A DNA stretch of 64,000 nt from the NCBI GenBank assembly GCA_963823685.1, contig CAWGMM010000001.1:60355-124354 (forward strand). Reading direction: 5' to 3'. Every line of letters starts with the position of its first letter. The stretch's first letter is position 1. This document shows, piece after piece, positions 5,741-64,000 of this stretch. This DNA is from an uncultured Isosphaeraceae bacterium (GTDB taxonomy: Bacteria > Planctomycetota > Planctomycetia > Isosphaerales > Isosphaeraceae). A program made the position numbers and the translations under genes. The notes under the pieces were generated by a model. The model did not search any database, had not been told where the DNA came from, and saw nothing but the letters and a program-made list of their open reading frames with translations.

Positions 5741-6283
5741 TCATTCGTTCGGGACCGCCTCGTCAGGCGTCAGCTCACGGAGCCGGATGTTCCGCCAGCG
5801 CACCTGGTAGGGACCCGTACCGGGCTTGATCGCGTGGACCTGGAGCCCGATAAAACCCTGCCGGTCCTTGTCATCGACAAAGTCCGCGCAGGCGACACCG
5901 TTGACCCACGATCGGTAACGATTGCCCTGCACAACGATCCGGTACCGATTCCACTGGCCGTCCTTGAAGGCGTTCCTGGCTTCGGTCCTGGTGGCGAGGT
6001 CGTCGAGCCAGCGAGTCCGGCGGGCCTCGTCCCAGAAGTTGCCGGCGACTCCCTTGGCGGCTTCCGCGATCTCGCATTGCGGGCCGTAGACCGTGCCCGA
6101 GGGTCGGACCCGCTTCGTGTCCGACTCCTGCGGCGTATCCTTCTCGTAAACGTGGCTACGGACCTGGATGCCCGAGTTCAGGGCTGGGTCGCACTGGACT
6201 TCAAGCTCGAGGGCGAAATCGCGGTAGTCGCCCCGGCAGAGGAACGTGTTGGGACTTCCCTCGACCGTCTTGCCGACAATCAT
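5741..6283 (-). CDS. DUF1080 (3-keto-disaccharide hydrolase-like) domain protein; the reading frame stays open upstream to about 6440 with no start codon, reading ...DWTSLFDGSSLEGW...
   Basis: FIGLQVH...YRNIRLREL C-terminus typical of DUF1080; the domain N-terminal motif (WTSLFDG) lies upstream of the annotated ATG in the same frame and overlaps the 3' end of the hydrolase gene in a +1 frame. Confidence 0.6.
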   Translation of the reverse strand: MIVGKTVEGSPNTFLCRGDYRDFALELEVQCDPALNSGIQVRSHVYEKDTPQESDTKRVRPSGTVYGPQCEIAEAAKGVAGNFWDEARRTRWLDDLATRTEARNAFKDGQWNRYRIVVQGNRYRSWVNGVACADFVDDKDRQGFIGLQVHAIKPGTGPYQVRWRNIRLRELTPDEAVPNE

Positions 6284-6386
6284 GCCGTCCTTGACCTCGT
6301 AAACCGCGCGGCCGCCCCGGACCGTCCAGCCCTCGAGGCTCGAGCCGTCAAACAGCGAGGTCCAATCCGCGTCACGGCCGACGCCG

Positions 6387-7241
6387 CTACTTTCGGTCGA
6401 CGACTCCGGCGCGGGGAAGATATCCCAGCGAGACCAGGAACTGGTCCATCCGCCTGGTCGTGCGCTCGGTCCACGGTGCCCGGTTGAAGAAGCTGTGTCC
6501 CTGACCCTCCGCGGTGAAGATCTCGGCCCGGAACCCCAGCTCCTTCGCTCGGGCCAGAAACGCCTGGCCCTGGGCGTACAGCCGATCTTCCGTGCCGAAG
6601 AAGAGGATGGTTGGAGGGGTCTGCTTCGTGACGTGCTCGGTGGGCGATAGCTTGCGCGCCAGCTCCTTGTCGTTTCCGACGCGTTCCATCAACGAGGCGA
6701 TGTCAACGAACGAGAGAACCGGGTTGTACAGGATCAGGACGTTCGGCCGCGACGATACCGCGAGGTCCTCGCCCTGGGCCTCCAGTCCGTCGGTCAGGCT
6801 CGTGCAGGCGGCGATATGTCCCCCCGCCGAACCGCCTGACGCCACAATCCGGTCGGGGTCGACACCCAGCTCACCGGCCTTGCTCCGAAGCCAGCGCACC
6901 GCGCTCTTGGCGTCCTCGACACAACGGTCGGGCGCAACGCCCTGTCGCGACTTCACCCGGTAATCCGCGCGAACCGCCACCATGCCGCGGCGAGCCAGAT
7001 GGTCGGCCTGGGTGGCGAACTGCTTGATATTGCCGTTCGTCCAGCCGCCTCCGAAGAAGAAGACGATGGCCGGCCGCCTGTCCGACTCCTTCCAGCCCGG
7101 CGGATAGTGAACCACCGCCTCGAGCGGGCCTTGCGGGGTTGTCTTGTAGGTAAACGTCCTTGACGACGGTTCCTCGCCCCTGGAAACGCCGACCACAAGG
7201 GCCGTCAGAAGGGCTGGCACGAGGCAGACATCACGTTTCAT
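6387..7241 (-). CDS. secreted alpha/beta-hydrolase (esterase/lipase family)
   Basis: Signal peptide; HGGGW-like oxyanion region (FFFGGGW), GGSAGG nucleophile elbow, GQGHSF C-terminal His region. Confidence 0.75.
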   Translation of the reverse strand: MKRDVCLVPALLTALVVGVSRGEEPSSRTFTYKTTPQGPLEAVVHYPPGWKESDRRPAIVFFFGGGWTNGNIKQFATQADHLARRGMVAVRADYRVKSRQGVAPDRCVEDAKSAVRWLRSKAGELGVDPDRIVASGGSAGGHIAACTSLTDGLEAQGEDLAVSSRPNVLILYNPVLSFVDIASLMERVGNDKELARKLSPTEHVTKQTPPTILFFGTEDRLYAQGQAFLARAKELGFRAEIFTAEGQGHSFFNRAPWTERTTRRMDQFLVSLGYLPRAGVVDRK

Positions 7242-7281
7242 GAAAATGTGCTCCTAGGAACGTTCGATGCCAATGTGCGGT

Positions 7282-8958
7282 TCACTTCGCATCCGGAGTC
7301 CTGGGTTTGTCCTGGCCCTGCGGCACGACCTTCGGCGCACCGTCGGGAACCCGGGCCTGATCAGGAGTGATCAGCGGCAGGTCATCCGGCAGACGCTTCA
7401 GGAACATGTCGCGATACTGGATCGTCATCGGCGGACCGACGTGGACCTGCACGGCGAGTACGCCTTCAAGCTTCCGGCCCCTGGCGTCGAGGTCGATGAC
7501 GTCCACCGTCGGGTGGCCGTCGATCCAGTGCCGGTGATGGTTTCCCTCGACCAGGACCCGGTAATCATGCCATTCGCCGGGGGCGAAGGACCTGAGCGGG
7601 AACGTGCCGACGACCCAGGGCTGGCCCTGGGTGTCGATGATCACGCGCTCGCCCGTGCTGCGCAGGATGCGCCGGCCGCGCTCCTCGTAGAGCATGCCGT
7701 TGTAGTCGGGCCGCTTCGCCACCACGTCGCACTGGTAGCCGGTGATGACCGACTCGCCCAGGTCGGGCCGCTCGGTCCCGCGATACTGCAAACCGCTGTT
7801 GCCGCCTGGCGATACCTTCACCTGGACGCGAAGCTCGAAATTTTTCAACGTGCCGCCGCGCCAGACGATGAAGCGGTTGTACTTGAGGGTGCCGTCGGCC
7901 TTGCCTGTCAGGTCGCCGCCCTCGGCGCTCCAGTACGCCGGGCTTCCTTCCCAGCCGCTCAGATCGCGGCCGTTGAGCAGGTTCACGAACCCTTCGGGAG
8001 GAGGCTTCGGCGAGACCTTGGCGCTCTCGTCGCCTGGTCTGAGGCGGATCTGGCTGGCGCTCGGGAAATCGCCCGGCACCGGAATCGTCACCTGCCCCGT
8101 CGCGGCCCATTCAACCCCGCGCAGGAGCATCGTCTGGAAGCCGGCGCAACGCATCGCGGTTTCCGGACCATTCTTCCAGAGGTGTCCGAGCATCGTCGTG
8201 TAAACCCGGCCCTTACCGTAGGGGATCACCCAGTCCATCACCTCGTTTTCCCTGGTGTCCCGGGAATAGGCGTAGGTAAGGACCGTCAGATCCTGCGCGG
8301 GGCCGTGCTGCCCGTGGGTAAGTTGCTCGTGCGGGTGCAGCCATTGGGTCGGCATACCCCGGGTGATCGGATGATCGGGGTTGAGCACGGTGACCACGAA
8401 GTCGTGCTCGGGCCCATGTCCCGGGTTTCGGCCCTTGCCTTTCGGGACCTCGACCACCTTGCCCTCGCCGCTGACGATCAAGGACGGGCCGAAGTCCTTG
8501 TTTCGCCAGCCCAGGCCGATCATCCGGTTATAGGCCGGCCAGTCGGGGAACGAATTGTTCGCGGCGTGGTAGCTGACGAGCCCCCCTCCTCCGCTGACGT
8601 AATCCTCGAGCGCCTGCTCCAGATCGCGGGGCCAGTGAATGCCCTTGGCGGTATGTCCGCCGTTGAAGTTCATGACCACCACGTCGTACATCGAGAACGC
8701 GGGCTTCCACTCCCGCCAGCGCTCGACGGAGGCACCGGCCGGAGGGCTGGTGGCCACATTCACTTCGAATCGACCGCTCTCTTCGAGAATCGCCTTGAGG
8801 ATGCGCATCGCGCGCTCCCAGTCGTGGTTGTTCGCCCCGTCGACGATGAGCGCTTTGAGCTTTGGCCTCGGCTTCGTATCGAGATTCTGGCCAGAGGCCG
8901 GGGCCGCCAGCAACGCGACGACAACGCCCAGGAGTAGCCTCGAGCATCGGACTCTCAT
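7282..8958 (-). CDS. ThuA (trehalose utilisation, GATase1-like) domain fused to a C-terminal DUF1080 domain; secreted
   Basis: Signal peptide; N-terminal ThuA-like region (KALIVDGANNHDW...VSYHAANNSF); C-terminal DUF1080 (FVNLLNGRDLSGWEG...LAVQVH...YRDMFLKRL). Confidence 0.75.
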   Translation of the reverse strand: MRVRCSRLLLGVVVALLAAPASGQNLDTKPRPKLKALIVDGANNHDWERAMRILKAILEESGRFEVNVATSPPAGASVERWREWKPAFSMYDVVVMNFNGGHTAKGIHWPRDLEQALEDYVSGGGGLVSYHAANNSFPDWPAYNRMIGLGWRNKDFGPSLIVSGEGKVVEVPKGKGRNPGHGPEHDFVVTVLNPDHPITRGMPTQWLHPHEQLTHGQHGPAQDLTVLTYAYSRDTRENEVMDWVIPYGKGRVYTTMLGHLWKNGPETAMRCAGFQTMLLRGVEWAATGQVTIPVPGDFPSASQIRLRPGDESAKVSPKPPPEGFVNLLNGRDLSGWEGSPAYWSAEGGDLTGKADGTLKYNRFIVWRGGTLKNFELRVQVKVSPGGNSGLQYRGTERPDLGESVITGYQCDVVAKRPDYNGMLYEERGRRILRSTGERVIIDTQGQPWVVGTFPLRSFAPGEWHDYRVLVEGNHHRHWIDGHPTVDVIDLDARGRKLEGVLAVQVHVGPPMTIQYRDMFLKRLPDDLPLITPDQARVPDGAPKVVPQGQDKPRTPDAK

Positions 8959-9155
8959 CGACGGGTCTCCAGCGGCTCATTGGTTCGTTTCAAGAAAGAC
9001 AAATTGAGGATGGCGGATCAGAGCGTTCTAACCGAACCGGGGCGCGATCTCAACCGACCAGGGCTCCGATCGTGGAAGTGTTGATCTCAACCCCGATCAA
9101 CGCAATGTGGAGGCAGCCTTCTGTCCAGCCGCATCAAACCGTATAAAACGATGGT

Positions 9156-10676
9156 GTGTCACCGTGTCGACCCTACAAAGCTCAGGTGCTTGCGATGCCA
9201 CCAAAGCCCGTCCTCGTCACCGGCGCGACCGGATATATCGGCGGCCGGCTGATCCCACAGCTTCTGGCCAGGGGATACGCGGTCCGTTGCATGGTCCGCG
9301 ACCCGAACCGGCTCCGAGGTCGTGAATGGGCGAACCAGGTCGAGATCGTGACCGGCGACGTGCTCGATCGGCCGTCGCTGGTGCCCGCGCTGCGGGGGTG
9401 TGGCACGGCGTTTTACCTGATCCACTCGATGACGGCTGGCACCGGCGCGTTTCGCGACTGCGACCTCCAGGCCGCTCGTAACTTCGCGGACGCCGCGTCG
9501 GAGGCGGGCGTCGACCGGATCGTCTACCTCGGCGGCCTGGGACGTCGTTCGGAGAAGCTCTCGAAGCACCTGACCAGCCGGCACGAGGTGGGCGACGTGC
9601 TCCGCGCGGGCCGCGTTCCCACCACCGAGCTCCGGGCCGCGATGATCATCGGGTCGGGAAGCGCCTCGTTCGAGATGCTTCGCGCCCTGGTCATGCGACT
9701 GCCCGCGATGATCTGTCCGCGCTGGGTCGCCAACCGGACCCAGCCCATCGCGATCCGGAGCGTTCTGGCCTACCTGATCGGCTGCATGGAGAATCAAGCG
9801 ACCGCCGGACAGGTCTTCGATATCGGCGGCCCGGATGTCCTCACCTACAAGGAGATGATGGAGCGATTCGCCGGGATCGTCGGCCTGAAGCGCTGGATCG
9901 TCGTGGTCCCGGTCCTGACGCCCCGACTCTCGGCCTACTGGGCCAACCTGGTCACGCCCGTACCGGCGTCGATCGCCTTTCCGCTGATCGAGGGGCTCAA
10001 GTCCGAAACCATCTGCGAGGACGACCGAATCAAGGCCCTTGTCCCGGTCAAGCCCATCGGTTTCGACGACGCGGTGCGCCTGGCGCTGGAGAAGTACCGG
10101 CAGCACGAGGTCGAGACCCGCTGGACGAACGCGAGCATTCCCGATCGCGCCGGGCATCGATCGCGCTTCGACCCGGCCGATTTCCCGATCCGCGACGAGC
10201 AGCGTGTGGCCTGCCATTGCTCATCCGCGGCGTTGTTCGATCGGGTCCAGCGGATCGGAGGTAACGTCGGCTGGTACTACGCCGACGCCCTCTGGAGGGT
10301 CCGCGGCGGGATGGACCGGATGATCGGCGGCGTCGGTCTTCGACGGGGCCGACGCGACCCGACCGATGTCTTCGTCGGCGACGCGATCGACTTCTGGCGC
10401 GTCGAGGACATGCGCCCGGGCCATCGCCTGCTCCTCCACGCCGAGATGAAGGTCCCCGGCGACGCCTGGCTCGAGTTCCGGGTCGAGCCGGGCGTCGATC
10501 GAGAGCACTCCACACTGATTCAAACCGCCTACTTCCGGCCGTCCCCGTTCTGGGGCCGGCTCTACTGGAACCTGCTCTACCCGCTCCACCGGCTGATCTT
10601 CCGTGGCATGGCGAGCAACATCGCCCGGACGGCCGAGGGCCTCCCCGCGCCTGAGAGCACCCTGAAATCCAGGTAA
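9156..10676 (+). CDS. NAD(P)-binding SDR/NmrA-like oxidoreductase with C-terminal DUF2867 domain
   Basis: Rossmann motif VLVTGATGYIGGRL at the N-terminus; C-terminal region (GDAIDFWRVEDM...AWLEFRV...YFRPSPFWGRLYWNLLYPLHRLIF) matches DUF2867. Confidence 0.75.
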   Translation: MSPCRPYKAQVLAMPPKPVLVTGATGYIGGRLIPQLLARGYAVRCMVRDPNRLRGREWANQVEIVTGDVLDRPSLVPALRGCGTAFYLIHSMTAGTGAFRDCDLQAARNFADAASEAGVDRIVYLGGLGRRSEKLSKHLTSRHEVGDVLRAGRVPTTELRAAMIIGSGSASFEMLRALVMRLPAMICPRWVANRTQPIAIRSVLAYLIGCMENQATAGQVFDIGGPDVLTYKEMMERFAGIVGLKRWIVVVPVLTPRLSAYWANLVTPVPASIAFPLIEGLKSETICEDDRIKALVPVKPIGFDDAVRLALEKYRQHEVETRWTNASIPDRAGHRSRFDPADFPIRDEQRVACHCSSAALFDRVQRIGGNVGWYYADALWRVRGGMDRMIGGVGLRRGRRDPTDVFVGDAIDFWRVEDMRPGHRLLLHAEMKVPGDAWLEFRVEPGVDREHSTLIQTAYFRPSPFWGRLYWNLLYPLHRLIFRGMASNIARTAEGLPAPESTLKSR

Positions 10677-10732
10677 AAGCCTAACTCGTTGAGACCAAAC
10701 GACCTTCGCAAGTCTCGGTCAAGTTCCGGAAG

Positions 10733-11251
10733 ATGCGGTCCGATCCTTCTGTCAGTGGATTACTCTCGAAGGGAGGACCGATGGCGGAAGACAAGTCGAA
10801 GCAGGTTCCGGACTGGATCGATGAGTTCACCGAGGAGATCGGACACTACATCGATACCGGCACCGTACCGGTCGCCTACAGTGTCTGGGGGCCGGACGAT
10901 CGCGAGGCCGAGGAAAGCCTCGACGACCCCTGGCTGGTCCATTTCTACCCCACGCTCAGTGAGATGGTCGGCGGCCCGCATGACGGTACCCACGTCTTCC
11001 CCAGCCTGAGCGCCGACGTGATCTCGCTCCAGGAGACGATCGAAGATATCGAATTCCTTTACTTCATGAGCCAGTCGCGGCATCACGAACAAAGGTACAA
11101 GGGAGCGGCACTCGTCATCACCGGCTGGTATCATGAGCATCCGGTGGACCTGAGGGTCTTCGAGATCCCTCCCGACGACGCCGATGTCGAGGCCATCATC
11201 TACCATCAGACCGGCATGCTCCGGATCAAGGACCCGAGTCGATTGTCGTAA
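10733..11251 (+). CDS. hypothetical protein (acidic, no recognisable domain)
   Basis: ORF only; possible internal start at MAEDKSKQ. Confidence 0.3.
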   Translation: MRSDPSVSGLLSKGGPMAEDKSKQVPDWIDEFTEEIGHYIDTGTVPVAYSVWGPDDREAEESLDDPWLVHFYPTLSEMVGGPHDGTHVFPSLSADVISLQETIEDIEFLYFMSQSRHHEQRYKGAALVITGWYHEHPVDLRVFEIPPDDADVEAIIYHQTGMLRIKDPSRLS

Positions 11252-11290
11252 ACGTGCATCGCTGCCCGTGAACCCCTTTGAGACACGACA

Positions 11291-12640
11291 ATGATGAGAC
11301 CCCTGGCCTGGTCGATCCTGCTCCTCTGCCCCTTCGCAGCCGTTCCCGCCCTGGGAGCGGGGCAAATGGTCGAGGTCGCGTATCCGCCGTCCGACAAGCC
11401 GGGTGAGCTGGTTTACGGCGTGACCTATCGCGCCTGGCTCCCGGACGGATTGACCCGGCTCCGGGGTCTCATCGTTCATCAGCACGGCTGCGGCGCGGGG
11501 GCATGCCGGGGGGGTGAGACGGCGGCCGACGACCTCCACTGGCAGGCGCTCGCGAAGAGGTGGGATTGCGCCCTGATCGGCCCCTCGTACCACCAGGAGG
11601 ACGGACAGAATTGCCGACTCTGGTGCGACCCGCGTAACGGCTCCCGGGCCCGCTTCGTCCAGGCCCTCGATGACCTGGCCGGACGTTCCGGCCATCCCGA
11701 GCTGTCGACCGTCCCCTGGTGCCTCTGGGGTCATTCCGGCGGCGCCTTCTGGGCCAGCCTGATGATGATCTCCGACCCCGACCGGGTCGTCGCGGTCTGG
11801 CTCCGATCGGGCACCGCGCTCTCCGCCTGGGAAAAAGGCGAGGTGCCGAAGCCCGAGATCACCGACGCCGTTTACCAGATTCCCTTCATCTGCAACCCCG
11901 GTGTCAAGGAAAACGGCGACCCGCGGTTCAACGGCGCCTGGACCGGCGCCCTCGCGATGTTCCGCGCCTACCGCGACCACGGTGCCCCGGCCGGCTTCGC
12001 CCCCGACCCGCGCACCGCTCACGAGTGCGGCGATTCACGCTATCTCGCCATTCCGTTCTTCGACGCCTGCCTGGCCGCCCGGTTGCCCAGGCCGGAAGAC
12101 GCCTCTCGGGAACCGAAACTCAGGCCCGTCGCGCCCACCAGCGGATGGCTCGCGCCCTTGCTCGGCGAGACCGTCGAGCCCTACGCCTCGTATCGTGGCG
12201 ACCTGAACGAGGCGGTCTGGCTTCCCGACGAGCGGGTTGCCAGAGCGTGGAGCGCGTATGTCCGCACCGGGTCCTTCGTCGATGCCACACCGCCTCCCGC
12301 GCCAACCAGGGTAAAAGCCGTCGCCGTACCCGTTGCTGGAGCGGGCGCGGGTGTCGAGATCACGTGGGACGCGGAAGCCGATTTCGAGAGCGGTATTCAG
12401 GGGTTCGTCATCGAGCGCGACGGCCGTGAGCTGGCGCGTTTGCCGGAAAAAAAGGTCGGGAAGTTCGGTCGGCCGATCTTTCAGGTGATGTCGTATCACG
12501 ACACTCCCAAGCGCCCCTTGCCCACGCTCCGGTTCGTCGATCTCCAACCCGAGGCCGGTAAACCCTCCTCCTATCGGGTGCGGACGATCAACGGCGCCGG
12601 TCTGAACTCGGAGCCCTCGACGCCCGCCCAGGTCCCTTGA
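11291..12640 (+). CDS. secreted serine-hydrolase-like protein with C-terminal fibronectin type III-like domain
   Basis: Signal peptide; GHSGG nucleophile-elbow motif (WGHSGGAF); C-terminal beta-rich FN3-like segment. Confidence 0.5.
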   Translation: MMRPLAWSILLLCPFAAVPALGAGQMVEVAYPPSDKPGELVYGVTYRAWLPDGLTRLRGLIVHQHGCGAGACRGGETAADDLHWQALAKRWDCALIGPSYHQEDGQNCRLWCDPRNGSRARFVQALDDLAGRSGHPELSTVPWCLWGHSGGAFWASLMMISDPDRVVAVWLRSGTALSAWEKGEVPKPEITDAVYQIPFICNPGVKENGDPRFNGAWTGALAMFRAYRDHGAPAGFAPDPRTAHECGDSRYLAIPFFDACLAARLPRPEDASREPKLRPVAPTSGWLAPLLGETVEPYASYRGDLNEAVWLPDERVARAWSAYVRTGSFVDATPPPAPTRVKAVAVPVAGAGAGVEITWDAEADFESGIQGFVIERDGRELARLPEKKVGKFGRPIFQVMSYHDTPKRPLPTLRFVDLQPEAGKPSSYRVRTINGAGLNSEPSTPAQVP

Positions 12641-13063
12641 TCAGCCCTCCTGATACGTCGATTTGCGCGTACCGGAATAAAACCCATATCTCCCGCGGAT
12701 CGCCTCGTGGCCCGGCTTGGGCTCGGGGTAGACCCACGCCACGTCGGACACGGTCCGGCCGTCGGGAGCGACGAAGTCGACCCAGTTGCAGGTTCCCTTG
12801 TACGGGCATGTGTACGTCCGACTTGTCACCCGTAGCGCCCCGGAATCGACCGTGGCGGGTTCGAAGTAGAGATTTCCCTCGTAAACGATCACCCCCGAGC
12901 CCGACTCGCCCTGGGCCAGGACCGAACCCGACTCCCGCTCCTTGATCGCGATCGACACGGTGGGACTCCTTCGACCTGTAGGTTTGTGCGAATGCTTCCA
13001 ATCCACGACACCGGTGGCATTATAGACGCGCGTCAGGAGGGGCCGGCATTGTCGGCCCCGCAC
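12641..13063 (-). CDS. DUF427 domain protein
   Basis: NLYFEP...YTCPYKGTCNW...VAWVYPEP matches the DUF427 signature; true start probably internal (GTG near 12964). Confidence 0.6.
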   Translation of the reverse strand: MRGRQCRPLLTRVYNATGVVDWKHSHKPTGRRSPTVSIAIKERESGSVLAQGESGSGVIVYEGNLYFEPATVDSGALRVTSRTYTCPYKGTCNWVDFVAPDGRTVSDVAWVYPEPKPGHEAIRGRYGFYSGTRKSTYQEG

Positions 13064-14055
13064 TACGTGGCGACTTGCATCAGGCGTCGCAGGCTGTCGC
13101 GGATCAACTCGTGCGAGAGCCCGGCCCAGCGGATCTCGGCATTGAGGACGTCGAACGGGGCCTGGTTATGAAGTTCCCGAAACCGCCGCGCGACGGTCTC
13201 GGGGCCGCCCACGATGAAGTTGATCGGGTGTGCGCACAGGTCGTCGACGCGAGCCGGCTCGGGCATTTCGGCGGGGATCTTCCCTTCCGCTCGAAACCGA
13301 CGCCAGAGGATGCGGAGCGCCGGCTCCGCCTGCGCCAGCGCCGTGGCGTCGTCCGGCCCCACGAACAACGGCCGGTTGGCGGCGATCTGCCGCGTCCCCC
13401 CCGCCTCCCGGTACGCGTCGATGTAGCCGCGGTACTGCTCAGGCGTCCGCAGATGCGAGAACAGCATGTTGAAGTCGAGCGACCCGGCGATCCGCGCGCC
13501 CAGGCTGTTGACCGCGACCCAGCAACGCCCGGCCAGGCCGGGCGCGGCGACCGGTAACGACCGGTGTGGCGGAACCTTGAACGCACGCCCGGCAGGCTCC
13601 GACCAGTCACCCTCCCAGACCGACCGGATGACCCGCAGCGCCTCCTCGAATCGGTCGTGGCGGGCTCGCTCGTCTCCGAAGGTGTCGGCGCCGAATAACC
13701 GTACTTCCTCGGGTGTGCTGCCGCTGCCGAAACCGACCGCCATCCGGCCGCCGGTCAGAATGTCGGCGACCGAAACCTGCTCGGCGACATCGAGCGGGTG
13801 GTGCAGGTTCAGGCAGGTGATCGCCGTTCCCACCCGGATGTCACGGGTCTGCCCCGCCATGTGCAGGGCGAAGATCAACGGCACGGGAAGATGACCGTGG
13901 TGGGCATGGGCGTGGTGCTCGGCGAACCAGGCGTGGCTCACCCCGAGCCGATCGGCCAGCAGGACCAGGTCCGCCACCTCATCGTAGATCTGGGCCGATG
14001 GCTGATCCGCCGGACCCTCCACATGGTCGGTGATCCCGATCGAAAAGCGGCTCAA
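13063..14055 (-). CDS. LLM-class (luciferase-like) flavin-dependent oxidoreductase
   Basis: MSRFSIGITDHVEG...AEHH...TIM-barrel LLM family motifs. Confidence 0.8.
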   Translation of the reverse strand: MSRFSIGITDHVEGPADQPSAQIYDEVADLVLLADRLGVSHAWFAEHHAHAHHGHLPVPLIFALHMAGQTRDIRVGTAITCLNLHHPLDVAEQVSVADILTGGRMAVGFGSGSTPEEVRLFGADTFGDERARHDRFEEALRVIRSVWEGDWSEPAGRAFKVPPHRSLPVAAPGLAGRCWVAVNSLGARIAGSLDFNMLFSHLRTPEQYRGYIDAYREAGGTRQIAANRPLFVGPDDATALAQAEPALRILWRRFRAEGKIPAEMPEPARVDDLCAHPINFIVGGPETVARRFRELHNQAPFDVLNAEIRWAGLSHELIRDSLRRLMQVAT

Positions 14056-15385
14056 GGCTTGCTCCCGGATGCTTCGATCGCATGGCTCGGCGGATGAAAA
14101 AAGACCGCCAGGAGCACCGCGGCCAGCAACGAGACGCCAAACGGGACGAGGAAGAGCGAGTGAAAATCGATCACGCGGCCGACTCGCGCTCCCGGGCTCG
14201 CGGCCCGCGAGAAAACGTCGCCGAGCCAGCCCCAGACCAGGTTGGACACGAACTGCGAGATTCCCAGGATCATCAGGTTAAAAAGGCTCTGGGCACTGGC
14301 GCGGACCTCGGCCGGGAAATTCTCGTCGACGTAGATGAACACCGTCGCGAAGAAGCAGGCGTAGGCAAACCCATGCACGACGTTCACCACGATCACGGGC
14401 CACAACAGATCGCGCGAGCCCAGCGCGTAGACGCCGAACCGGACCGACTGGCTGAGAATACCGAACAGCATCGTCCTGCGCCAGCCCAGCCGCTTGATGA
14501 TGCCCCCCAGCAGGGCCATCGCGACGATCTCCATCGCCTGCCCGATGCTCATCGCCGGGGCGATCCAGTTCTCGGGCACGCCGATCGACTGGAGAAAACG
14601 GCTGGTCCAGAAATAATAGGCGTTATGAACCAGTGAATCGAAGAACGTGACCACGTACAGCACGAGCAGGCTGGGCCGGCCCAGCAGACGGATCGCCTCC
14701 CAGGGCGCGAACCTCGCCCCCGCCCGGCTCGATGGCGTGGGGGGCGTGTGCGGCAAGACGAGTGAGAACACGGCCAGCACCAGCGAAGCGATCCCCGCGA
14801 CGACGAACGTCCCGGTCAGCGCCGACTCCATCGCCGGGCCGGTCTTGAGCGTCGAGAGCGCCGTCCCCACCCAGGCGACGAGCCCGCCGGCCTCGGACAG
14901 AGTTGGCACTCGCACCAGTTGATCGGAATGAAGATCAGCGGCCAGGCCGCCGTGACCCAGCCGACCGTGCCCCAGAGCCGGAGCAAGCCAAACTCCTTGC
15001 GAGGCTCCGCGACATTGGCGAACGCGATCGCGTTGGCGACCGACAAGGTCGGAACATAAAAGAAACAGTGCAGCAACATCAGTCCGAAGAACGGCCAGAA
15101 CGACTTCGCGAACACGAGGCCGAACATCGCCAATCCGCCGACCAGGTGGCTCAGCGCCAGGAACTTCTCCTGCGCGATGTGCCGGTCGGTGAGCTGACCT
15201 CCGAAGAACATCCCCGTGACCGAGGCGATCGCGAACGCGTTGAACACCCACGCTTGCTGAAAACCGGTGAACCCAAGGTATCGGTCGCCCATGTAAAGCC
15301 CCAGCAACGGCAGCCACGCTCCCTTGATCAGGTATTCAAGAAAGAACATCAGGCAGAATTTTGCTCGAACCGACTTGTACATCAA
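14052..15385 (-). pseudogene. MFS transporter (nucleoside:H+ symporter-like), split into two frames near 14905-14950
   Basis: N-terminal half (FFLEYLIKGAWLPLLGLYMG...WPLIFIPINW) in ORF 14816-15385, C-terminal TM half in ORF 14052-15317 in a different frame. Confidence 0.6.
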
Positions 15386-15623
15386 AACGTTTTCAACCTC
15401 GGTGGGGCGGGTGCTGGCGGTCGAGCGTGATCGGTCGGAGGAGCCTACGGTTTGCTGGGCGTCTGACAGTTTACGCTCGAATTCCGCGCCCGGCTACCGG
15501 GCATCGGCGGAGAGTTGTTGCGTGCGTCCCGTCTGTGATACCTTGCTCCGCGTGCCGAGGCCGTCGAGGCGATTGTCTGCGCCTCGATGCGAGAATCGTG
15601 GTTCCAGCAGCGAGGGGGCCGTC

Positions 15624-16172
15624 ATGAGCGAGCGAATCCTACTTCGTACCGGCGAGGCGCTGGTCGAGGGCACCGAGGACTACCTGGCCGCCGAGCCCGA
15701 GGTCGTGATCGGCGAGCTCGACGGCCCGCTCGGCCAGGCGCTGGCCTCACTGATCGGGAACCAGGTCAAGGGCCACACCAAGGTCTTCGCCATCCTGAAC
15801 AGCGACGTCCAGGTCCGGCCCGTGACCGTGATGGTGAGCAAGGTCACGGTCAACGACTCCCGGTACACCAACATCCTGATGGGCACCGTCCAGGCTGCCA
15901 TCGCCAACGGCGTGCTCGATGCCGTGCGTGCTGGGGACATCCCCAAGGAGAAGGCCAACGACCTGGGGATCATCTACTCCGTCTGGCTCGATCCCGCCGT
16001 TCTCAAGGCCGACGATCTCGACCACCAGGCCCTCTTCGACGTCCACCGCGAGGCGACCGCCAAGGTGATCCGAAAGGCCATGCGACACGAGCCGTCGATC
16101 GACTGGCTGCTCGAGCACCAGCACGAGATCCCGCACTATTACCACCAGCTCGGGCTCGAAGGCGAGATCTGA
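15624..16172 (+). CDS. fae: formaldehyde-activating enzyme
   Basis: MSERILLRTGEALVEG...GPLGQALAS...KVTVNDSRYTNILMGTVQAAIANGVLDAV...DLGIIYSVWLDP aligns along its length with the Fae family; GAGGGGG Shine-Dalgarno upstream. Confidence 0.8.
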   Translation: MSERILLRTGEALVEGTEDYLAAEPEVVIGELDGPLGQALASLIGNQVKGHTKVFAILNSDVQVRPVTVMVSKVTVNDSRYTNILMGTVQAAIANGVLDAVRAGDIPKEKANDLGIIYSVWLDPAVLKADDLDHQALFDVHREATAKVIRKAMRHEPSIDWLLEHQHEIPHYYHQLGLEGEI

Positions 16173-26946: not shown

Positions 26947-26983
26947 TAAAGAGTTCTCCTGAAATTTATATCTAACATGATCA

Positions 26984-40013: not shown

Positions 40014-40015
40014 AT

Positions 40016-56000: not shown

Positions 56001-56279
56001 CGCAGGCGCTGACCCTGCTCAACGACCCGTTCGTCGTCGCCCAGGCCCGGCTCTGGGCCGAGCGCTGCGCCGAGTGAAGGCAAACCCGACGGCCGTTCGC
56101 CATCCGAACGCGTCGGCCAGCTCTACGAGACCGCCTTCGGCCGACCGCCCAGCCCCGACGAGACCGCCGCGGCGCTCGCCTTCCTGAGCGCCGGCGATAC
56201 GCCGCTGGATGACCCGCGAGCCTGGGCTGACCTGTGCCATGTGCTGGTCAATGTTAAGGAATTTATTTATGTAAAGTAA
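53097..56279 (+). pseudogene. PSCyt1 (planctomycete cytochrome c) - DUF1549 - DUF1553 - PSD1 family protein, split over several frames
   Basis: CQGCHG heme motif with LLIEAINYGDLQKMPP; DUF1549 block LPPTPDEIAAFLND...RYGERWARHWLDLVAFAETSGHEFD; DUF1553 block LARVLVNRVWKHHFGEGIVRTPDDFG; conserved C-terminus CHVLVNVKEFIYVK. Confidence 0.7.
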
Positions 56280-56606
56280 AAGCGTTCATTCTTGATTTTG
56301 ATTGATCCAATCATTAAAATATGTTTTGATGATTTGACTTAAATCGGTGGTGTCCCAGATCCATTGCAGGAAGAGATATGGCCTTTCTCCCCCCTTAAAA
56401 AAGGGGGCAAGGCGGGGTCGGCCTGGTCGGCCGCCTGGTCTCGTGGCGGGCTTAACCCCCCAACCCTCTTGGAAAGGGGGGAGAAGCGTGTATCGATTCT
56501 CGTGCAAGGGATCTGGGACCTCACCCTAAAAAATCGGCTCTGCGGAATTCTCCGTTTCGCACGTTCGTTTCCAATGATCTCTCGAACTTCACCAGCGGAG
56601 TGCCGC

Positions 56607-58040
56607 ATGCACTGCCAGCGCTATCACAGCGAGCCCGCGACCCGACGCGAGATGTTGCTCCGCTGCGCCAGCGGATTTGGCGGGCTGGCGATGACGGCGC
56701 TTCTGCGCGATCCGGCGTTCGGCGAGGCGCTGAAGACCGCGGACGACCCGCTCACGCCCCGGCCGCCCCACTTCACGCCACGGGCGCGGAACGTGATCTT
56801 CCTGTACATGGACGGCGGGCCGTCGCAGATGGACACGTTCGACCCCAAGCCGCGGCTCGACCGCGAGCATGGCCAGCCGATCAAGGTCAAGACCCACCCG
56901 ACCCAGTTCAACAACGTTGGCAACGTGCTCAGGTCGCCGTGGACGTTCCGCCCGTACGGCGAGAGCGGCATCCCGGTCAGCGACCTGTTTCGACACGTTG
57001 GTGAGTGCGTCGACGACCTGGCGATCGTCCGGTCGATGGTCTCGAACTTCTCCGAGCACACCAGCGCCAATTACTTCCTGCACACCGGCAGCGGCCTCCA
57101 GGGCCGGCCCAGCCACGGCGCCTGGGTCACGTACGGGCTGGGCAGCGAGTGCCGCGACCTGCCCGGCTTCGTCGTCCTGAACGGCGGCCTGATTCCTCCC
57201 GGCGGGCTCGACTGCTTCAACAGCGGCTTTCTTCCCGCGTCGTACCAGGGCTCGATCTTCAAGGCCGGCGCCAACCCGGTCGCCAATATCGAGCCGACCG
57301 AGTCGTCGACCGACATCCGCGACCGCAAGCTGCGCGCTGTTGCGGACCCTCGACCAGGGGGTCCTGGGCCGGATCGGCCACCACGACGCGCTCGAGTCGG
57401 TCGATCGCCAACTACGAGCTGGCCTTCAAGATGCAGGCCGCGGTGCCGGGCCTGCTCGACCTGTCGGGTGAATCGAAGGCGACCCAGCAGCTTTACGGTC
57501 TCGACGCGGCGTACCCGCCCACCCAGATCTACGGCCGGCTCTGCCTGCTGGCCCGACGCCTGGTGGAGCGCGGGGTCCGGTTCGTCGAGCTACTCTGTCC
57601 CAAGGTCACGGGCGACCGATGGGACCAGCACTCGAACCTCAAGGACGGTCACGAGAACAACGCGCCGCGCCGTGGACCAGCCCATCGCCGCGCTGCTCAA
57701 GGACCTGAAAGCCCGCGGCCTGCTCGAATCGACCCTGGTCGTCTGGGGCGGCGAGTTCGGCCGGACCCCCATGGCCCAGGGAAGCAACGGCCGCGACCAC
57801 AACCCCTATGGTTTCACCATGTGGCTGGCCGGCGGCGGTATCAAGGGGGGGACCATCCACGGCGCGACCGACGACTACGGCTACCACGCCGTCGAGAACA
57901 AGGTCGAGGTCCACGACCTTCACGCCACCATCCTGCACCTCCTGGGCATCGACCACAAGCGCCTGACCTTCCGCTTCAGCGGTCGCGACATGCGGCTGAC
58001 CGACGTGCATGGCGAGATCGTCACACCGATCATCGCATGA
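56607..58040 (+). CDS. DUF1501 family protein (Tat signal; sulfatase-like fold), partner of the DUF1549/DUF1553 gene; middle section out of frame, about 57340-57700
   Basis: Tat-like [15 protein letters not shown]; [19 protein letters not shown]; C-terminus [11 protein letters not shown]...[21 protein letters not shown]; central [22 protein letters not shown] is in another frame, flanked by two compensating shifts. Confidence 0.7.
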
Positions 58041-58802: not shown

Positions 58803-59471
58803 TCAAGGCAGAGGCTCGGGAGGCTCGTCGGGTCCGCGGAGATTCCGATAGGTCACCCGAGGCAGACCGCGCGAGAACGCCGGAAAGACCGGATCGACCA
58901 GCCCGAGCCGCGCCGCGGCCCGTCGATCGGTGCCGGGAGGAAGCGGCGCGCTCTTGATCAAGATCAGCTCGCATGCCTTCAGGTCCAGCGCCACACGGGC
59001 GGCGATCGTGTCGCTGGTCACGTCCCACGAGGCGGGCAAGGGGTCGCTCGGATCGAGCGTCGTCCGCAACGAGATGGCGGTACGGGGCGAGGGCGGGAAT
59101 CCGGCCATGCGACCAGATCGGGTCCAGACCCGCGAGGTCGTCGGTCACCTCGATCATGGCCAGGAGCGCCGCGAGAACCTCGCGGTCAGGTCCATTGATC
59201 GGATCGCCAGGTCATGGGCCGCGCGGTCACCGATCGCGAAAACCCGGTCGACGTCCCTGATCCAATCGGCCGCGGGGCCGCCGCCGGTCACGACCACGAG
59301 GCGCTGTCCCGCCTCGCGGCGACGATCAAGGAACCGGCCCAGGCGGTCCGGCAAATCCGGCCAGTCGAGGAGGCTACCGCCGACCTTCACGACCACGATC
59401 GATCGAGAAGCGCTCGATATTCGCGGCTCGCCGCCCGCTTCGCACGGAAGCTCGCGCTCGCTGGCGAGCAC
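58803..59471 (-). pseudogene. amino-acid-kinase-family (Asp/Glu/uridylate kinase fold) protein, frameshifted
   Basis: SIVVVKVGGSLL (N-terminus); C-terminal TSDTIAARVALDLKACELILIKSAP in another frame. Confidence 0.5.
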
Positions 59472-59742
59472 GAGCAGCGCGCGGGCGCAGCCGGCGCTCG
59501 AGGCGACAGCGCCCAGGCGTCGTTCAGGCTGAGGATCGAGCCCCCCGGCTCGATCAGCGCCCGGCCAGTCGGCGGGCGAGGAACTCCCCCGAGCCGGCCA
59601 CGACGGCGGATCGCGGCCGGCCGATGGACGCGTGGCAAGCGCCGCTCTGCGCCGGCCTCAAGCCGGGCCAGCAGCGCCTCATCGGCCGCGCGGGCGAAGG
59701 CCAGGGCGTCGTCGTCGCTGAAGCCGTCGCGGTCGGTCCCGA

Positions 59743-60462
59743 TCATCCGGGCCATCCGCTCGCGGGCCGCGTCGCGAGTCGCGGGGCGGCCGTCGGCGGT
59801 CGAGAGGTCCTTGGGGTCCGCGCGATCTCATCCAGCGTCAGATAGACGTCAAGCGTTGACGCGAACAGCTCGGCCGCCAGACCGGTCGGCACCCCGCGAT
59901 GCGGCAGGTCGGTCGCCAGCGCACAGATCGGGGTTCGCCGGACGCCGGCATACACCAGCTCGCCCGTCTGGAGCCGTTCGGTGTCGGTCCGACCCCGGGC
60001 GCGGTGCAGGCCGTCGGCCAGGGGAATCAGGTCGGTCGTGGTGGTGCCGATATCGATCAGGAGACCCGGTCCTTCGGGCACGAGCCGGGCCGCCAGCGTG
60101 GCCAGCGCCAGCCAGTTGGCCGCCGCCGCCAGCTCCGGCCGTTGCCGAATCGTCGCGACATCGTGGAGCCGGCCATCCACCCCCCACACCTCAACGAGCC
60201 GTGGCCCGAAAGCCTCTTCCACCGCGTCGAGGACCGCGCTAACCCCGACCGCCTTGGTCGGATAACAGTCACATAGCTCGGCCGTCATCGTGACCGCCAG
60301 CCGATCGGACTGAGGAAACGTCGCCCCCAGCGCCGCCAGGACCCGGCCCAGCTCATCCGGCCGTTTCCAGACCTCGAACGGCAAGGTCCGCGCCGGTCCC
60401 GCCGTATGCGCCGCCTTGATGTTCGGCGCCCCCGATATCCAGCGCCAGCCACGAATCCAGGA
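59743..60462 (-). CDS. hydantoinase/oxoprolinase-like (actin-fold ATPase) protein of the H4MPT-linked C1 pathway family; C-terminus probably frameshifted
   Basis: MSEILDSWLALDIGGANIKAAH (start at 60462, in frame), LAVTMTAELCDCYP, LLIDIGTTTTDLIP. Confidence 0.55.
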   Translation of the reverse strand, partial: SWIRGWRWISGAPNIKAAHTAGPARTLPFEVWKRPDELGRVLAALGATFPQSDRLAVTMTAELCDCYPTKAVGVSAVLDAVEEAFGPRLVEVWGVDGRLHDVATIRQRPELAAAANWLALATLAARLVPEGPGLLIDIGTTTTDLIPLADGLHRARGRTDTERLQTGELVYAGVRRTPICALATDLPHRGVPTGLAAELFASTLDVYLTLDEIARTPRTSRPPTAAPRLATRPASGWPG

Positions 60463-60468
60463 TCTCGC

Positions 60469-61526
60469 TCATGGGGGGAACCTCCCGGTCGACCGCGATC
60501 GCCCCTGAACCTGAACCAATCGACCGTCCGCCGCGAATGTGACGGGATCGCCTGATTCCCAGTCCAGGATCGGAGTCCGGCCGGCTTCCTCGCGATCGGG
60601 ATCGCTCTCGATCAACCCTTCAAGCCAACGTCGTGCCAGACTCCCGGGAGATCGCCCCGCCGCCCGGGTCAGGCCCACCATCGACGTCGTCGGCCGGGGG
60701 TTGATCTCCAGCACCACGCCACACTTTGCCACGTCATCCCACACATAATCAACCCCCACAAACCCAGCCAGACCCGGAACGGCGGCGACGGCCTGCGCGG
60801 CGACCTCCAGGCCCAGGGGCTCGACCGGGACCGTTCCTCCGCGATAATGGAACCGGCCGTGCTCGATCGCGATCTCTTGCCGTCCCGCTGCGATCGGGTG
60901 CGCCCGGCCGTCGGCTCCCACCAGGAAGCTCGCGCTCATGGGCACGCCCTGCGCATACGGCTGAAGCAGAGCCGACCCCATCGACCGGGCCGGAACGGGA
61001 CAGGCCCCCGCCTCCGTGACCAGGTACGTATCCATCGTCCCCGCGCCGTCGATCGGCTTGAGCACCGCGGGATAGGAAAAATCGGCCGGCAACCCCCGCC
61101 GCGGCACGACCGGAATGGTCTCGGGAGTCGTGACGCCGCGGCTTCGCAGGTGACGGCCGAGCCGAAGCTTGTCGCCGCATAGCTCGATCGCCCCGGGGCT
61201 CGATCCCAGCGACCGGCCGCCGCTCTCAAGGATCGATGCCGCCCGCGCGGCAGAATTCCCCCGGTCTCGGGAGCCACCAGCACGGTATAATCGACCCGGG
61301 AGGCAAGCTGCCGGAAGACTCGCTCTTCCTCGCCCTTGCCGATGCGGACCACCGACCAGGAATCAGCGACCGACTCGAGCTCGGGCTCGACCTCATCGGT
61401 AAACCGCTCATCGAGCGTGACGACCACGCGGACACCTGGCAAGGCGGCGAACTCGTCGGCGATCGCCCTCCGCATCGCCTTTCCCTCCGCCGCCCAGCTC
61501 GCCGGCAGCGGCGCCGGCCAGACCAC
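60469..61526 (-). pseudogene. ATP-grasp enzyme (H4MPT-biosynthesis orfY-like), frameshifted near 61100
   Basis: YPAVLKPIDGAGTMDTYLV...VVLEINPRPTTSMVGL (ATP-grasp core); N-terminal pre-ATP-grasp part lies in ORF 60936-61526. Confidence 0.6.
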
Positions 61527-61594
61527 CGCCCGTCACCCATTCGTGAACCAGGATGCTTGTCGTCATAAATCAACCACGCACGGTCTTCTTGATG

Positions 61595-62452
61595 GAACAA
61601 TCCCCGCGTCTGATCCCTGTCCTTGATATCCTGCGCGGAGTCGCGGTCCACGCCGTCGGCGGGGACCGTGCATCTTATCAGCCCCTGCGGAGTTGTCTCC
61701 ATCCCGATAGCGACCCTCTCGGTATCGCCCGGGGCATCCGCGAGCGGCTCGGCCTGCGCGAGCTCTACCTCGCCGACCTGGACGCGATCGCGGGCGCGGC
61801 TCCGAACATCGATCTCTACCGGGCGATCTCCGCCTTGGATTTGCCTCTCTGGATCGACGCCGGTATCCGCGACCGGAAGTCGCTGGCTCCCCTGCTCTCG
61901 CCATGGCCCGGCGCGGGGAACGAACCAGCTCCCTTCACGATCATCGCCGGCCTGGAGACCGTCCAGGGGCCCGAGGCGCTCGCGACCATGGTCGACGAGG
62001 TGGGGCCGGATCGCCTGGTCTTCAGTCTCGACCTCCGGGCCGGTCGGCCGCTCATCGAGGGCCGTCGCGAGGCCTGGGGTTCCGATGATCCCTGCACGAT
62101 CGCCAGGACCGCCTGTCGATCGGGAGCCCGCCGGATCCTGGTCCTCGACCTCGCCCGCGTCGGCACGGGTCGGGGGATCGGACCCGCAACCCGGGCGATC
62201 CTCGCCCAGCTCCGCGCCGGATACCCGGAGCTGGAGATCAGCGTCGGAGGCGGCATCGCGAGCCGTTCCGAGCTTCACGACCTGGCCCAGGCCGGCGCCG
62301 ACGCCGTCCTCGTCGGCTCAGCCCTGCACGATGGCCGGATCGAAACCGAATCGCTTCCAGACCGTCGAGGCCAGGCTACGGATGTTCCAAGTGGTTCGTC
62401 CACTCGACCCGAGCCGACTGTCCGAAGCTTTCCTCGACCTCGACCCGGATGA
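61595..62452 (+). CDS. HisA/HisF-family (beta/alpha)8-barrel protein of the H4MPT-biosynthesis type
   Basis: MEQSPRLIPVLDILRGVAVHAVGG...SVGGGIAS...DAVLVGSALHDG. Confidence 0.6.
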   Translation, partial: EQSPRLIPVLDILRGVAVHAVGGDRASYQPLRSCLHPDSDPLGIARGIRERLGLRELYLADLDAIAGAAPNIDLYRAISALDLPLWIDAGIRDRKSLAPLLSPWPGAGNEPAPFTIIAGLETVQGPEALATMVDEVGPDRLVFSLDLRAGRPLIEGRREAWGSDDPCTIARTACRSGARRILVLDLARVGTGRGIGPATRAILAQLRAGYPELEISVGGGIASRSELHDLAQAGADAVLVGSALHDGRIETESLPDRRGQATDVPSGSSTRPEPTVRSFPRPRPG

Positions 62453-62935
62453 TCCGGGGCACGGTGATGCCTCGTGCGGTCATCCGTTCCCGGAGGGCAC
62501 CGGCGATGTAGTCGCCCAGCAACTCGGCGGTCGTATTGGCGATCGGCAGCAGGGCACACTCATCGCGAGGGAAGCTCCAGAACCGGTCACGATACCGGAC
62601 CCGCCAGTTCGGCCCATCCTCATCGAGCACGATGAAGGCGCACTTGCGGTCGGCAGGAGCATCCGGTGGTCGATCTCGTCGACAATCTCGCGGGTGAGGT
62701 CCTTCAGCGCGATAAAGTCGAACACGTAATGGTTCTCGTCCAGCCGGTCCTCGATCTCGACGGCGACCCGGTAATTATGGCCGTGGACCCGCTCGCACAG
62801 GCCCCCTCCATAGGTGATGAAGTGCCCCGAGCTGAACACGAGGTAATCCTTGCTGACACGAACCTGATAGCGCGAACCGGCCACGGTCGAAAAACTCCTC
62901 ACGGGATGCGGACCCGCTTTCCTCTGCATCTTCAT
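62376..62935 (-). pseudogene. 6-pyruvoyl-tetrahydropterin synthase (QueD/PTPS family), frameshifted
   Basis: FSSGHFITYGGGLCERVHGHNYRVAVEIE...HYVFDFIALKDL; C-terminus NWRVRYRDRFWSFPRDECALLPIANTTAE in another frame. Confidence 0.65.
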
Positions 62936-63822
62936 CGGCGAAACGAGAGCGGCAACGGGATTGTCCCATCCCGCAGCCCGGCGAACAAGGCGGCGGCGAT
63001 CAGGTCGGCCGTGGCGCCGGGGTTGCGGGCATGGCCATCGGCGCGGAGCCAGTCGTCAAGATCTCTGCAACGCGCGTGCCCGGCCTCGGAGTCGGGCCAG
63101 CCTGACGCCAGGACGTCGGCGGCCTGCCGCGTGGCTTCGGATGCGATCGCATGACCCCGCTTGCGTGCGATCAGGGTATCGGGATGCCGAGCCAGCAGGG
63201 TGAGATACGCGCTCACGATCGACATTTCGAGCGGCTGGCCCACTTCCAGGGCGTTGCGCAGGGCGGGCAGAGCCTCGGCAAGAACCTGCTCGTAGTTGTT
63301 CGCGTACTGACGCGCCACCAGGTCGCGGCCGGCCGCCAACCGCATCGTCCCGAGCAGGCTGACACCTGGCTCGGCCGCGACGTCCTGTTCGGCGACCTCA
63401 CCCAGGCCGCCAGGATGGGCCAGACGGATGGCCTGGTAAACCTCGCGCGCATCTTCGATCGTGGTCGCCGCCAGGACTCCGGCAACTCCGGCTTCGAGCG
63501 GTTGGTCCAAAGGCACAGCCGCCAGGGGGGCAAGCAACAGGACCATGCCCAGGTTCGTGTTCGTCGCCACGACCCTGCGGGTCGCCTCGATCGCCTTGCG
63601 GATCGAACGGCCGATTCCTTCGGTCCGGGCCAGGTCGAGAGGGCCGGCGATCGCCGCGGCGCTGACGCAAAAATCGAGGAACCCGCAATCCTCGAAGTCG
63701 CTCCCGGCCCCGCGATGGACGTTCCCCGGCTTGGGCGCGTTGACCTCCAGGAGACACGCAAGTTGCGCGAGCAGGCCGGGTGACGGTGAAGCGAAGGACG
63801 GGGTGCGAACATCGACGCTCAT
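62932..63822 (-). CDS. triphosphoribosyl-dephospho-CoA synthase (CitG/MdcB)-family protein, H4MPT-associated type
   Basis: LLEVNAPKPGNVHRGAG CitG-family motif; ATGA start/stop overlap with the upstream gene. Confidence 0.7.
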   Translation of the reverse strand: MSVDVRTPSFASPSPGLLAQLACLLEVNAPKPGNVHRGAGSDFEDCGFLDFCVSAAAIAGPLDLARTEGIGRSIRKAIEATRRVVATNTNLGMVLLLAPLAAVPLDQPLEAGVAGVLAATTIEDAREVYQAIRLAHPGGLGEVAEQDVAAEPGVSLLGTMRLAAGRDLVARQYANNYEQVLAEALPALRNALEVGQPLEMSIVSAYLTLLARHPDTLIARKRGHAIASEATRQAADVLASGWPDSEAGHARCRDLDDWLRADGHARNPGATADLIAAALFAGLRDGTIPLPLSFRR

Positions 63823-63825
63823 GAG

Positions 63826-64000
63826 CCGGGACCTCGTTCCCCCCGAACCCGCGACCTGAGGAAATCGAGGATCTCGGCGGCCACGTCGATCCCGTTGGCC
63901 TGAGCCAGCGCCCGCCAGCCGGGGACGGCGTTGACCTCGAGGACGACCAGGGTTCCGCGATCGAGGTCCGGCATCAGGTCGACTCCCGCCATCTCGGCCC
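63826..64000 (-). CDS. RimK-like ATP-grasp ligase (C-terminal fragment; gene continues beyond the window end)
   Basis: Minus-strand translation ...AEMAGVDLMPDLDRGTLVVLEVNAVPGWRALAQANGIDVAAEILDFL-stop. Confidence 0.5.

Follow-up and report, generated by a model that had tools for sequence, protein, structure and literature searches.

The 64,000-nucleotide (nt) stretch of DNA analysed here, referred to below as the window, lies on contig CAWGMM010000001.1 (positions 60,355 to 124,354, forward strand) of assembly GCA_963823685.1 from an uncultured Isosphaeraceae bacterium. It has a G+C content of 62%–70% and carries a gene set typical of planctomycetes, including PSCyt/PSD1 genes with DUF1501, sulfatases, ThuA/DUF1080 genes, and a one-carbon (C1) cluster linked to tetrahydromethanopterin (H4MPT). 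Genes of several kinds in this window are interrupted by shifts of the reading frame. When Pfam domain matches, a Viterbi codon-usage model, and alignments to homologues were merged, at least 91 frame breaks were found in at least 19 genes. An earlier note on this DNA had listed at least 15 genes split across frames; the splits are real and had been undercounted. Here we describe the distribution and the type of these breaks and weigh their possible origins.

Because the high G+C content leaves long spurious open reading frames (ORFs) in all frames, coding frames were judged without ORF lists. Three-frame translations of the suspect regions, with stops masked, were scanned for Pfam domains; the Viterbi model had seven states and was trained on 18 intact genes of the window; and a protein-to-DNA aligner permitting codons of 1, 2, 4, or 5 nt was run with intact homologues as references. 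These were Singulisphaera acidiphila and loci of metagenome-assembled genomes (MAGs) for ThrC, ThiS, MoeB, and the aminotransferase; the ThuA homologues P0147, P0148, and P0150 and the GDSL homologue P0247 for the 25–27 kilobase (kb) part of a giant gene; Escherichia coli 2gq1_A, taken from a PDB alignment, for fructose-1,6-bisphosphatase (FBPase); fused ATP-grasp/hydantoinase-like/kinase-like homologues (P0269, P0270, and P0272) for the H4MPT-linked cluster; and, for the nucleoside symporter (L065) and the DUF1501 gene (L006), homologues met by chance in the fetched loci. References for the PSCyt gene (about 40% identity) gave contradictory typing of events and were left out of the typed counts. 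Aligned at the nucleotide level with four relatives, the stretch 47.65–43.6 kb gave base-exact positions for 24 single-base insertions. The switches of the Viterbi model agree with this base-by-base validated region, except that insertions less than about 40 nt apart are merged. Its "-1" switches are inseparable from two close +1 insertions (five of the six in the validated region were double insertions), and the ratio of insertions to deletions is therefore quoted for homologue-typed events only. The model gave 84 same-strand frame switches, about 10 of which coincide with real stop codons or gene boundaries, and the census of 91 breaks merges its switches with the homologue alignments, 31 of the breaks coming from the codon-usage model only.

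The breaks are gathered in five patches, namely patch A (21.3–26.8 kb; 33 events, 6.0 per coding kb), patch B (38.1–39.1 kb; 3 events, 2.1 per coding kb), patch C (42.7–49.1 kb; 32 events, 5.5 per coding kb), patch D (53.4–57.7 kb; 9 events, 2.2 per coding kb), and patch E (59.0–62.7 kb; 12 events, 2.7 per coding kb). Together they account for 89 breaks over 21.4 kb of coding sequence, or 4.2 per kb, against 2 in 30.2 kb elsewhere (0.07 per kb). The clustering that had been reported earlier is thus real (dispersion chi2 = 228, 62 degrees of freedom, P = 7e-21), although the third cluster reaches only to about 49.05 kb, not to 50.2 kb. At the patch rate, the chance of finding two events or fewer in the clean blocks would be about 1e-51. 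The first clean block (1..21000; 17.5 kb coding) has only the two isolated breaks and includes intact sucCD and both amt genes; the second (27001..37600; 7.0 kb coding) has no breaks and includes two intact sulfatases, two Uma2 genes, and a Band_7 gene; and a third, between patches C and D (49101..53300; 3.1 kb coding), is likewise free of breaks and holds FKBP and two hypothetical genes. The sucCD, amt, sulfatase, and FKBP genes had all been taken as intact before, and they are. The breaks follow stretches of sequence and not gene function, as core genes, large cell-surface-like planctomycete genes, and mobile-element genes are all affected. In every region flagged earlier, single Pfam domains change frame partway while their profile positions stay contiguous.

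Patch C contains the region that was resolved to the base. Here a threonine-synthase-like gene, a ThiS-like gene, a ThiF/MoeB-like gene, and a class-V aminotransferase follow one another on the reverse strand (43606-47640), and the cluster, termed the methionine operon in the earlier note, looks like a putative sulfur-carrier-protein pathway; the same gene order is kept in S. acidiphila, in Isosphaeraceae MAGs, and on a metagenome contig. Three insertions (47589, of 2 nt; 47335; and 46815) and one deletion (47504) break the threonine-synthase-like gene (46365..47621), whose PALP profile is split (20-180 / 181-295). Two 1-nt insertions, at 46120 and 46055, interrupt the ThiS-like gene (45917..46188), which is 81.6% identical to its orthologue in locus L001. 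In the ThiF/MoeB-like gene (44794..45850) we found 1-nt insertions at 45609, 45552, 45535, and 45192, a 2-nt insertion at 44989, and an uncertain event at 45836 near the start, which the protein aligner renders as a deletion. The ThiS and ThiF domains are split as well. The class-V aminotransferase, or cysteine desulfurase-like, gene (43606..44770) carries 16 single-base insertions, that is, one per 73 nt or 1.4% of positions, as judged from its orthologue in locus L002 and from the four-relative nucleotide alignment, and its Aminotran_5 profile continues across frames (90-163 / 184-363).

At the lower end of patch C, fbp, encoding a class I FBPase (42425..43459, reverse strand), lacks one base at about 43291 and has an extra one at about 42749; the FBPase profile is divided (2-54 / 52-191), and FBPase_C falls in another frame. 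At the upper end, a carbon-nitrogen hydrolase gene (48074..48860, reverse strand) is broken at about 48298 and 48492 according to both the Viterbi model and the Pfam profile, which runs through CN_hydrolase positions 1-124, then 126-194 in another frame, and then returns to the first frame. The last event of the patch is a +1-type break at about 49054, given by the Viterbi model only, in a hypothetical gene (48960..50223, forward strand) whose 5' part is in another frame and whose coding-like sequence reaches upstream of its first start codon.

The main body of patch A is a giant ThuA-GDSL-DUF7133-cytochrome c gene (22200..26952, reverse strand) with about 30 breaks, in which the DUF7133 profile is divided into 3-96 / 97-208 / 315-384. 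Alignment to homologues resolved 11 insertions and 3 deletions and no stops at 24.85-26.95 kb, and the other breaks in this gene come from the Viterbi model. The lower end of the patch is a DUF72 gene (21096..22030, reverse strand) with three Viterbi breaks at about 21333, 21578, and 21823, of which a Pfam fragment is found in one frame only. Patch B consists of the replication genes of an integrative element (37177..39852, forward strand; DUF669-like and DnaB_C-like) and has at least three +1-type breaks, at 38086, 38923, and 39060, which were given by the Viterbi model only; the DnaB_C profile is split here into 20-94 / 127-253.

Patch D comprises two genes on the forward strand. The PSCyt1-PSCyt2-PSD1 (DUF1549/DUF1553) gene (53123..56077) has its three domains in frames 3, 2, and 3 and at least six Viterbi breaks (53462, 54633, 54784, 55151, 55787, and 55869). 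In the DUF1501 gene (56364..58040), where two nearby shifts had been thought to compensate each other, alignment to L006 gives instead a 2-nt insertion at about 57339 and a 1-nt insertion at about 57653, the sum of three inserted bases restoring the frame. The Viterbi model places three +1 switches in this gene, and the profile is divided at position 183 and again near 268 (..183 / 184-269 / 268-390). Patch E lies in the H4MPT-linked cluster on the reverse strand and begins with an amino-acid-kinase-like gene (58830..59450), which has a deletion at about 59183 and an insertion at about 59055 relative to P0269. The Hydantoinase_A-like gene (59454..60454) follows, with insertions at about 60427 and 59626 and deletions at about 59820, 59562, and 59509 (relative to P0272, P0270, and P0269), and then an ATP-grasp gene (60455..61554) with deletions at about 61509 (2 nt) and 61250 and insertions at about 60498 and 60455 (relative to P0272 and P0270), whose pre-ATP-grasp and ATP-grasp domains are in different frames. 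The AA_kinase and Hydantoinase_A profiles are split too, as is PTPS, in a PTPS-like gene (62391..62931, reverse strand) where profile positions 8-68 and the remainder occupy different frames; the single Viterbi break here, at about 62652, is the last event of patch E.

Sixty breaks could be typed against intact homologues, and all of them are of 1–2 nt: 47 insertions (42 of one base and 5 of two) and 13 deletions (12 of one base and 1 of two). No in-frame stop codon was encountered across more than 3,500 aligned codons. The ratio of insertions to deletions is 29:2 in patch C, 11:3 in patch A, and 5:7 in patch E (C against E, Fisher P = 7e-4), as would be anticipated if the consensus of each patch came from its own small set of reads. 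The breaks have no detectable link to homopolymers, as the longest run within 6 nt on either side of 54 typed breaks averages 2.37 nt against a background of 2.47 (P = 0.85), and errors are essentially absent from the 30 runs of at least 5 nt that patches A, C, and E contain. Among the 24 base-resolved insertions (43600-47650), 19 are unlike both neighbours, that is, of run length 1, where 45% would be expected (P = 6e-4). Twenty of the 24 are G/C and 4 are A/T, and every one of the 20 inserted G/C bases adjoins the other strong base, where 59% would be expected (P = 3e-5). Run-length and neighbour statistics thus reject homopolymer indels, the mechanism given as an example in the earlier note, as the origin of the patch errors. 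Among eight motifs considered near the 24 insertions, GATC (at 7; P = 0.018) and CGATCG (at 5, against an expected 4%; P = 0.0026) were mildly enriched, both P values being uncorrected. A systematic error at methylation motifs was nevertheless rejected, since GATC and CGATCG are error-free in the clean blocks.

Once the frame is corrected, the broken genes become ordinary members of their families. Removal of the 16 bases from the aminotransferase yields a 1146-nt ORF of 382 amino acids without a stop, which has the same length as in 86 homologues (382 amino acids) and covers 100% of its best match at 91% identity. At the 138 columns that are invariant among the 86 intact homologues it shows no changes, where the intact homologues themselves average 0.45 and reach at most 3. 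Its identities to three outgroups (82.6%, 81.4%, and 85.4%) are inside the range of intact sister sequences, and the gene therefore has no extra branch length. ThrC, MoeB, ThiS, FBPase, ThuA, and the ATP-grasp/hydantoinase-like genes also align end to end after frame correction. In frameshift-aware alignments without a single stop, ThrC (414 codons) and MoeB (363 codons) are 87.7% and 87.6% identical to their S. acidiphila counterparts in spite of 4–6 breaks each, and FBPase (316 codons) is 55% identical to the E. coli enzyme. In all relatives examined (S. acidiphila, three MAGs, and one metagenome contig), the thrC-thiS-thiF-aminotransferase cluster is uninterrupted and syntenic. The comparison with intact orthologues that had been proposed earlier thus finds whole, syntenic genes in the relatives and corrected proteins of orthologue length in the window.

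We consider it highly probable that the frame breaks are consensus errors in the assembly and not mutations in the organism. Lesions that consist only of indels, ORFs that are restored by correcting them, the lack of nonsense codons and of excess substitution, and intact relatives support a localised assembly error, as the earlier note had preferred over selective decay. The window would then alternate between accurate sequence and five stretches of 1–6 kb in which about 0.4%–1.4% of positions bear an extra or, less often, a missing base. These patches may have been built from few or conflicting error-prone reads, or may have been missed by polishing, while the remainder would be well supported. 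A profile that is indel-only, insertion-biased, and independent of homopolymers would resemble raw or low-depth single-molecule reads, or disagreement between reads or strains written as an extra base, and would be unlike the errors that remain in a long-read assembly after thorough polishing. Indels that fragment genes are known from long-read assemblies (PMC8574707; PMC12007338).

Several points weigh against this explanation. The artefact is deduced from sequence comparison, and its signature matches no citable platform profile: polished PacBio assemblies of high-G+C genomes are reported to leave deletions in G/C homopolymers (PMC8574707), whereas insertions outside homopolymers prevail here. 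As to the patchiness, error density is only moderately correlated with local G+C content (Spearman rho = 0.44, P = 4e-4), and patch A has an average G+C content and is not GC-rich, so that GC-driven dropout of short reads, which we considered as the cause, is only partly consistent with the data. Finally, the 31 model-only breaks rest on codon usage, which is blind to the difference between a 1-nt deletion and two close insertions.

The alternative that fares best, although we regard it as rather unlikely, is that the patches are a more specific artefact, a collapsed consensus of at least two diverged strains or gene copies, in which substitution-type disagreements or misaligned neighbouring variants were written as an extra base. 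Collapsing of diverged alleles is documented to introduce indel errors into a consensus (PMC8445201). The preponderance of inserted bases unlike both neighbours, and the position of all inserted G/C bases beside the other strong base, would look like two calls placed side by side, and the patchiness would follow where the strains diverge. However, natural strain polymorphisms concentrate at third codon positions, and the inserted bases in the aminotransferase are spread evenly over the codon slots (5, 6, and 5), with no surplus at the third. Five of the insertions would imply non-synonymous variants at first or second positions, unlike natural strain polymorphisms, and in patch E deletions are as numerous as insertions. 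The specific version in which both alleles of a strain single-nucleotide polymorphism stand side by side fits the neighbour statistics but not the evenness of the codon slots, and it is kept as a minor variant only.

Genuine gene decay is very improbable. Under this explanation the patches would be DNA under relaxed selection, either accessory or recently redundant, that is gaining real frameshifts, and the clustering of breaks was the ground on which the earlier note had kept it as an option. Patch B lies within an integrative element, a setting in which decay would cause no surprise, and the isolated breaks in short C/G runs could be natural slippage mutations. However, the 1.15-kb aminotransferase has 16 frameshifts, yet its 138 invariant residues are unchanged and its branch length is not in excess, whereas drift long enough for 16 frameshifts would be expected to leave many substitutions and several stops. 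If substitutions outnumber indels about tenfold, as in bacterial mutation-accumulation studies, 60 indels should have brought with them substitutions in the hundreds and over 10 stop codons; the aligned codons hold no nonsense codons. In natural bacterial pseudogenes, 300 insertions were counted against 396 deletions and the mean deletion was 18.7 nt (PMC6054270), so that the 47:13 excess of small insertions in the window is opposite to the real pseudogene bias and size (P = 3e-8 against an insertion share of 0.43). Moreover, core genes of single-copy type (thrC-like and fbp) are struck as hard as the mobile-element gene, and in relatives the genes are whole and syntenic. On all these counts, natural pseudogene decay is effectively excluded.

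It is more improbable still that the bases are real in some other way, either through recent, insertion-biased, patch-wise mutation of core genes or through base deletion or recoding at the RNA level that keeps the genes functional. Were the breaks real, the situation would be extraordinary, with a frameshift every 80 nt in core genes and yet perfect residue conservation, and nothing supports it. The version in which real extra bases are bypassed by programmed recoding (ribosomal frameshifting, transcriptional slippage, or RNA editing) has a negligible probability, as nothing speaks for it but the persistence of coding signal past each break, whereas the break sites have random contexts without slippery or homopolymeric motifs, number up to 16 per gene, include both insertions and deletions, are confined to patches and not to particular genes, and are conserved in no relative, the genes of the relatives being uninterrupted.

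The two breaks outside the patches are of another kind. They had been placed near 6.3 and 14.9 kb, and are found at about 6.4 kb, as a candidate, and at 14.9 kb. A gene of the nucleoside:H+ symporter family (14052..15403, reverse strand) has a 1-nt deletion at 14914-14916, where GGG is read as GG, as judged from the split of Nuc_H_symport (3-148 / 155-398) and from alignment to L065. In the esterase / 3-keto-disaccharide-hydrolase (DUF1080) region (5741..7241, reverse strand), Pfam finds both domains whole, each in its own frame: the stop of the esterase ORF is at 6387, and the DUF1080 domain, likewise complete, opens 20 nt further on and lacks a start codon. One C fewer in the CCCC at 6413-6416 would yield a candidate esterase-DUF1080 fusion, and such a putative fusion would parallel the adjacent ThuA-DUF1080 gene (7285-8958). 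These isolated breaks alone lie in short C/G runs. They could be either residual homopolymer errors or natural slippage mutations, as would be expected rarely in otherwise accurate sequence.

The integrative element that contains patch B is about 7.3 kb long (34965-42379). A 47-nt direct repeat with one mismatch is present at 34965-35011 and 42306-42352 and duplicates part of tRNA-Arg(CCG) (42305-42379), which is abutted by a tyrosine integrase gene (40676-42349) that is intact, as previously described. The interior of the element, with its DUF669-like and DnaB_C-like genes, scores poorly with the host codon model. The 24-nt repeat TCCCACAGAGGGCATGGGTGTCCG occurs three times at 40015-40094 (two exact copies and one of 79%), about 600 nt upstream of the integrase gene, and these repeats may be putative protein-binding sites or iterons of the element. 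Two scans of IMG/VR gave no match to the element.

The closest relatives of the window's genes are Isosphaeraceae, and the window, judging from these affinities, is from a Singulisphaera-like member of the family. The ThiF/MoeB-like gene is closest to that of Singulisphaera acidiphila DSM 18658 (90% in the best segment) and to those of several MAGs, and the class-V aminotransferase is up to 91% identical to metagenome proteins and 83%–84% identical to those of named Singulisphaera species. Two tandem ammonium-transporter paralogues (16757-19895) are 89% identical over 419 amino acids, with long identical stretches, which suggests a recent duplication or gene conversion. Both copies are intact, even though near-identical repeats assemble with difficulty. 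The two Uma2-family paralogues (putative restriction endonucleases; 30427-31380 and 33452-34393) are 65% identical and flank the Band_7 gene and a tRNA-Ile; each copy ends in a C-terminal run of QRAEKEQ-like heptads, and the second holds a 21-nt tandem array at 33498-33738. A formaldehyde-activating-enzyme-like gene (15587-16172), recognised by eye from its translation, is intact in a clean block, 43 kb away from the H4MPT-linked cluster at 58.8-63.8 kb. A metagenome scan with the intact HisA/F-like gene, which sought a syntenic H4MPT cluster, found only relatives of at most 51% identity.

If the breaks are consensus errors, any annotation of this assembly would wrongly list about 19 genes as pseudogenes or as split in the window alone. 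The falsely broken genes would include fbp, the threonine-synthase-like gene, both members of the ThiS/MoeB sulfur-carrier pair, and a large part of the H4MPT-linked C1 cluster, and metabolic reconstructions would wrongly score the affected pathways as lost. Claims that this organism has lost genes or that its genome is decaying should wait until the patches have been re-polished or masked.

The window can be set beside three known systems. Bacterial pseudogenes under reductive evolution (PMC6054270) resemble it in having several indels per gene and in the clustering of disrupted genes. However, real pseudogenes show 0.76 insertions per deletion, deletions averaging about 19 nt, nonsense codons, and relaxed constraint, whereas the window has 3.6 insertions per deletion, events of 1–2 nt only, no stops, and full conservation of invariant residues. 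Allele collapse (PMC8445201) is similar in that the consensus carries frameshifts although the haplotypes are intact, and in that errors are localised at variants; it was described for a diploid eukaryote, however, and the window bears no sign of two haplotypes or of a third-position preference. The indel errors of long-read and hybrid assemblies (PMC8574707 and PMC12007338) share with the window single-base indels, several of them per gene, that come without substitutions and whose correction against orthologues restores full length. Residual errors in polished PacBio assemblies are reported to be mostly (>70%–99%) located in homopolymers, with G/C deletions at high G+C content (PMC8574707), while the patches described here hold mostly insertions outside homopolymers. 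The local error rate of 0.4%–1.4% is also far higher than in a polished assembly, and it is limited to patches of 1–6 kb.

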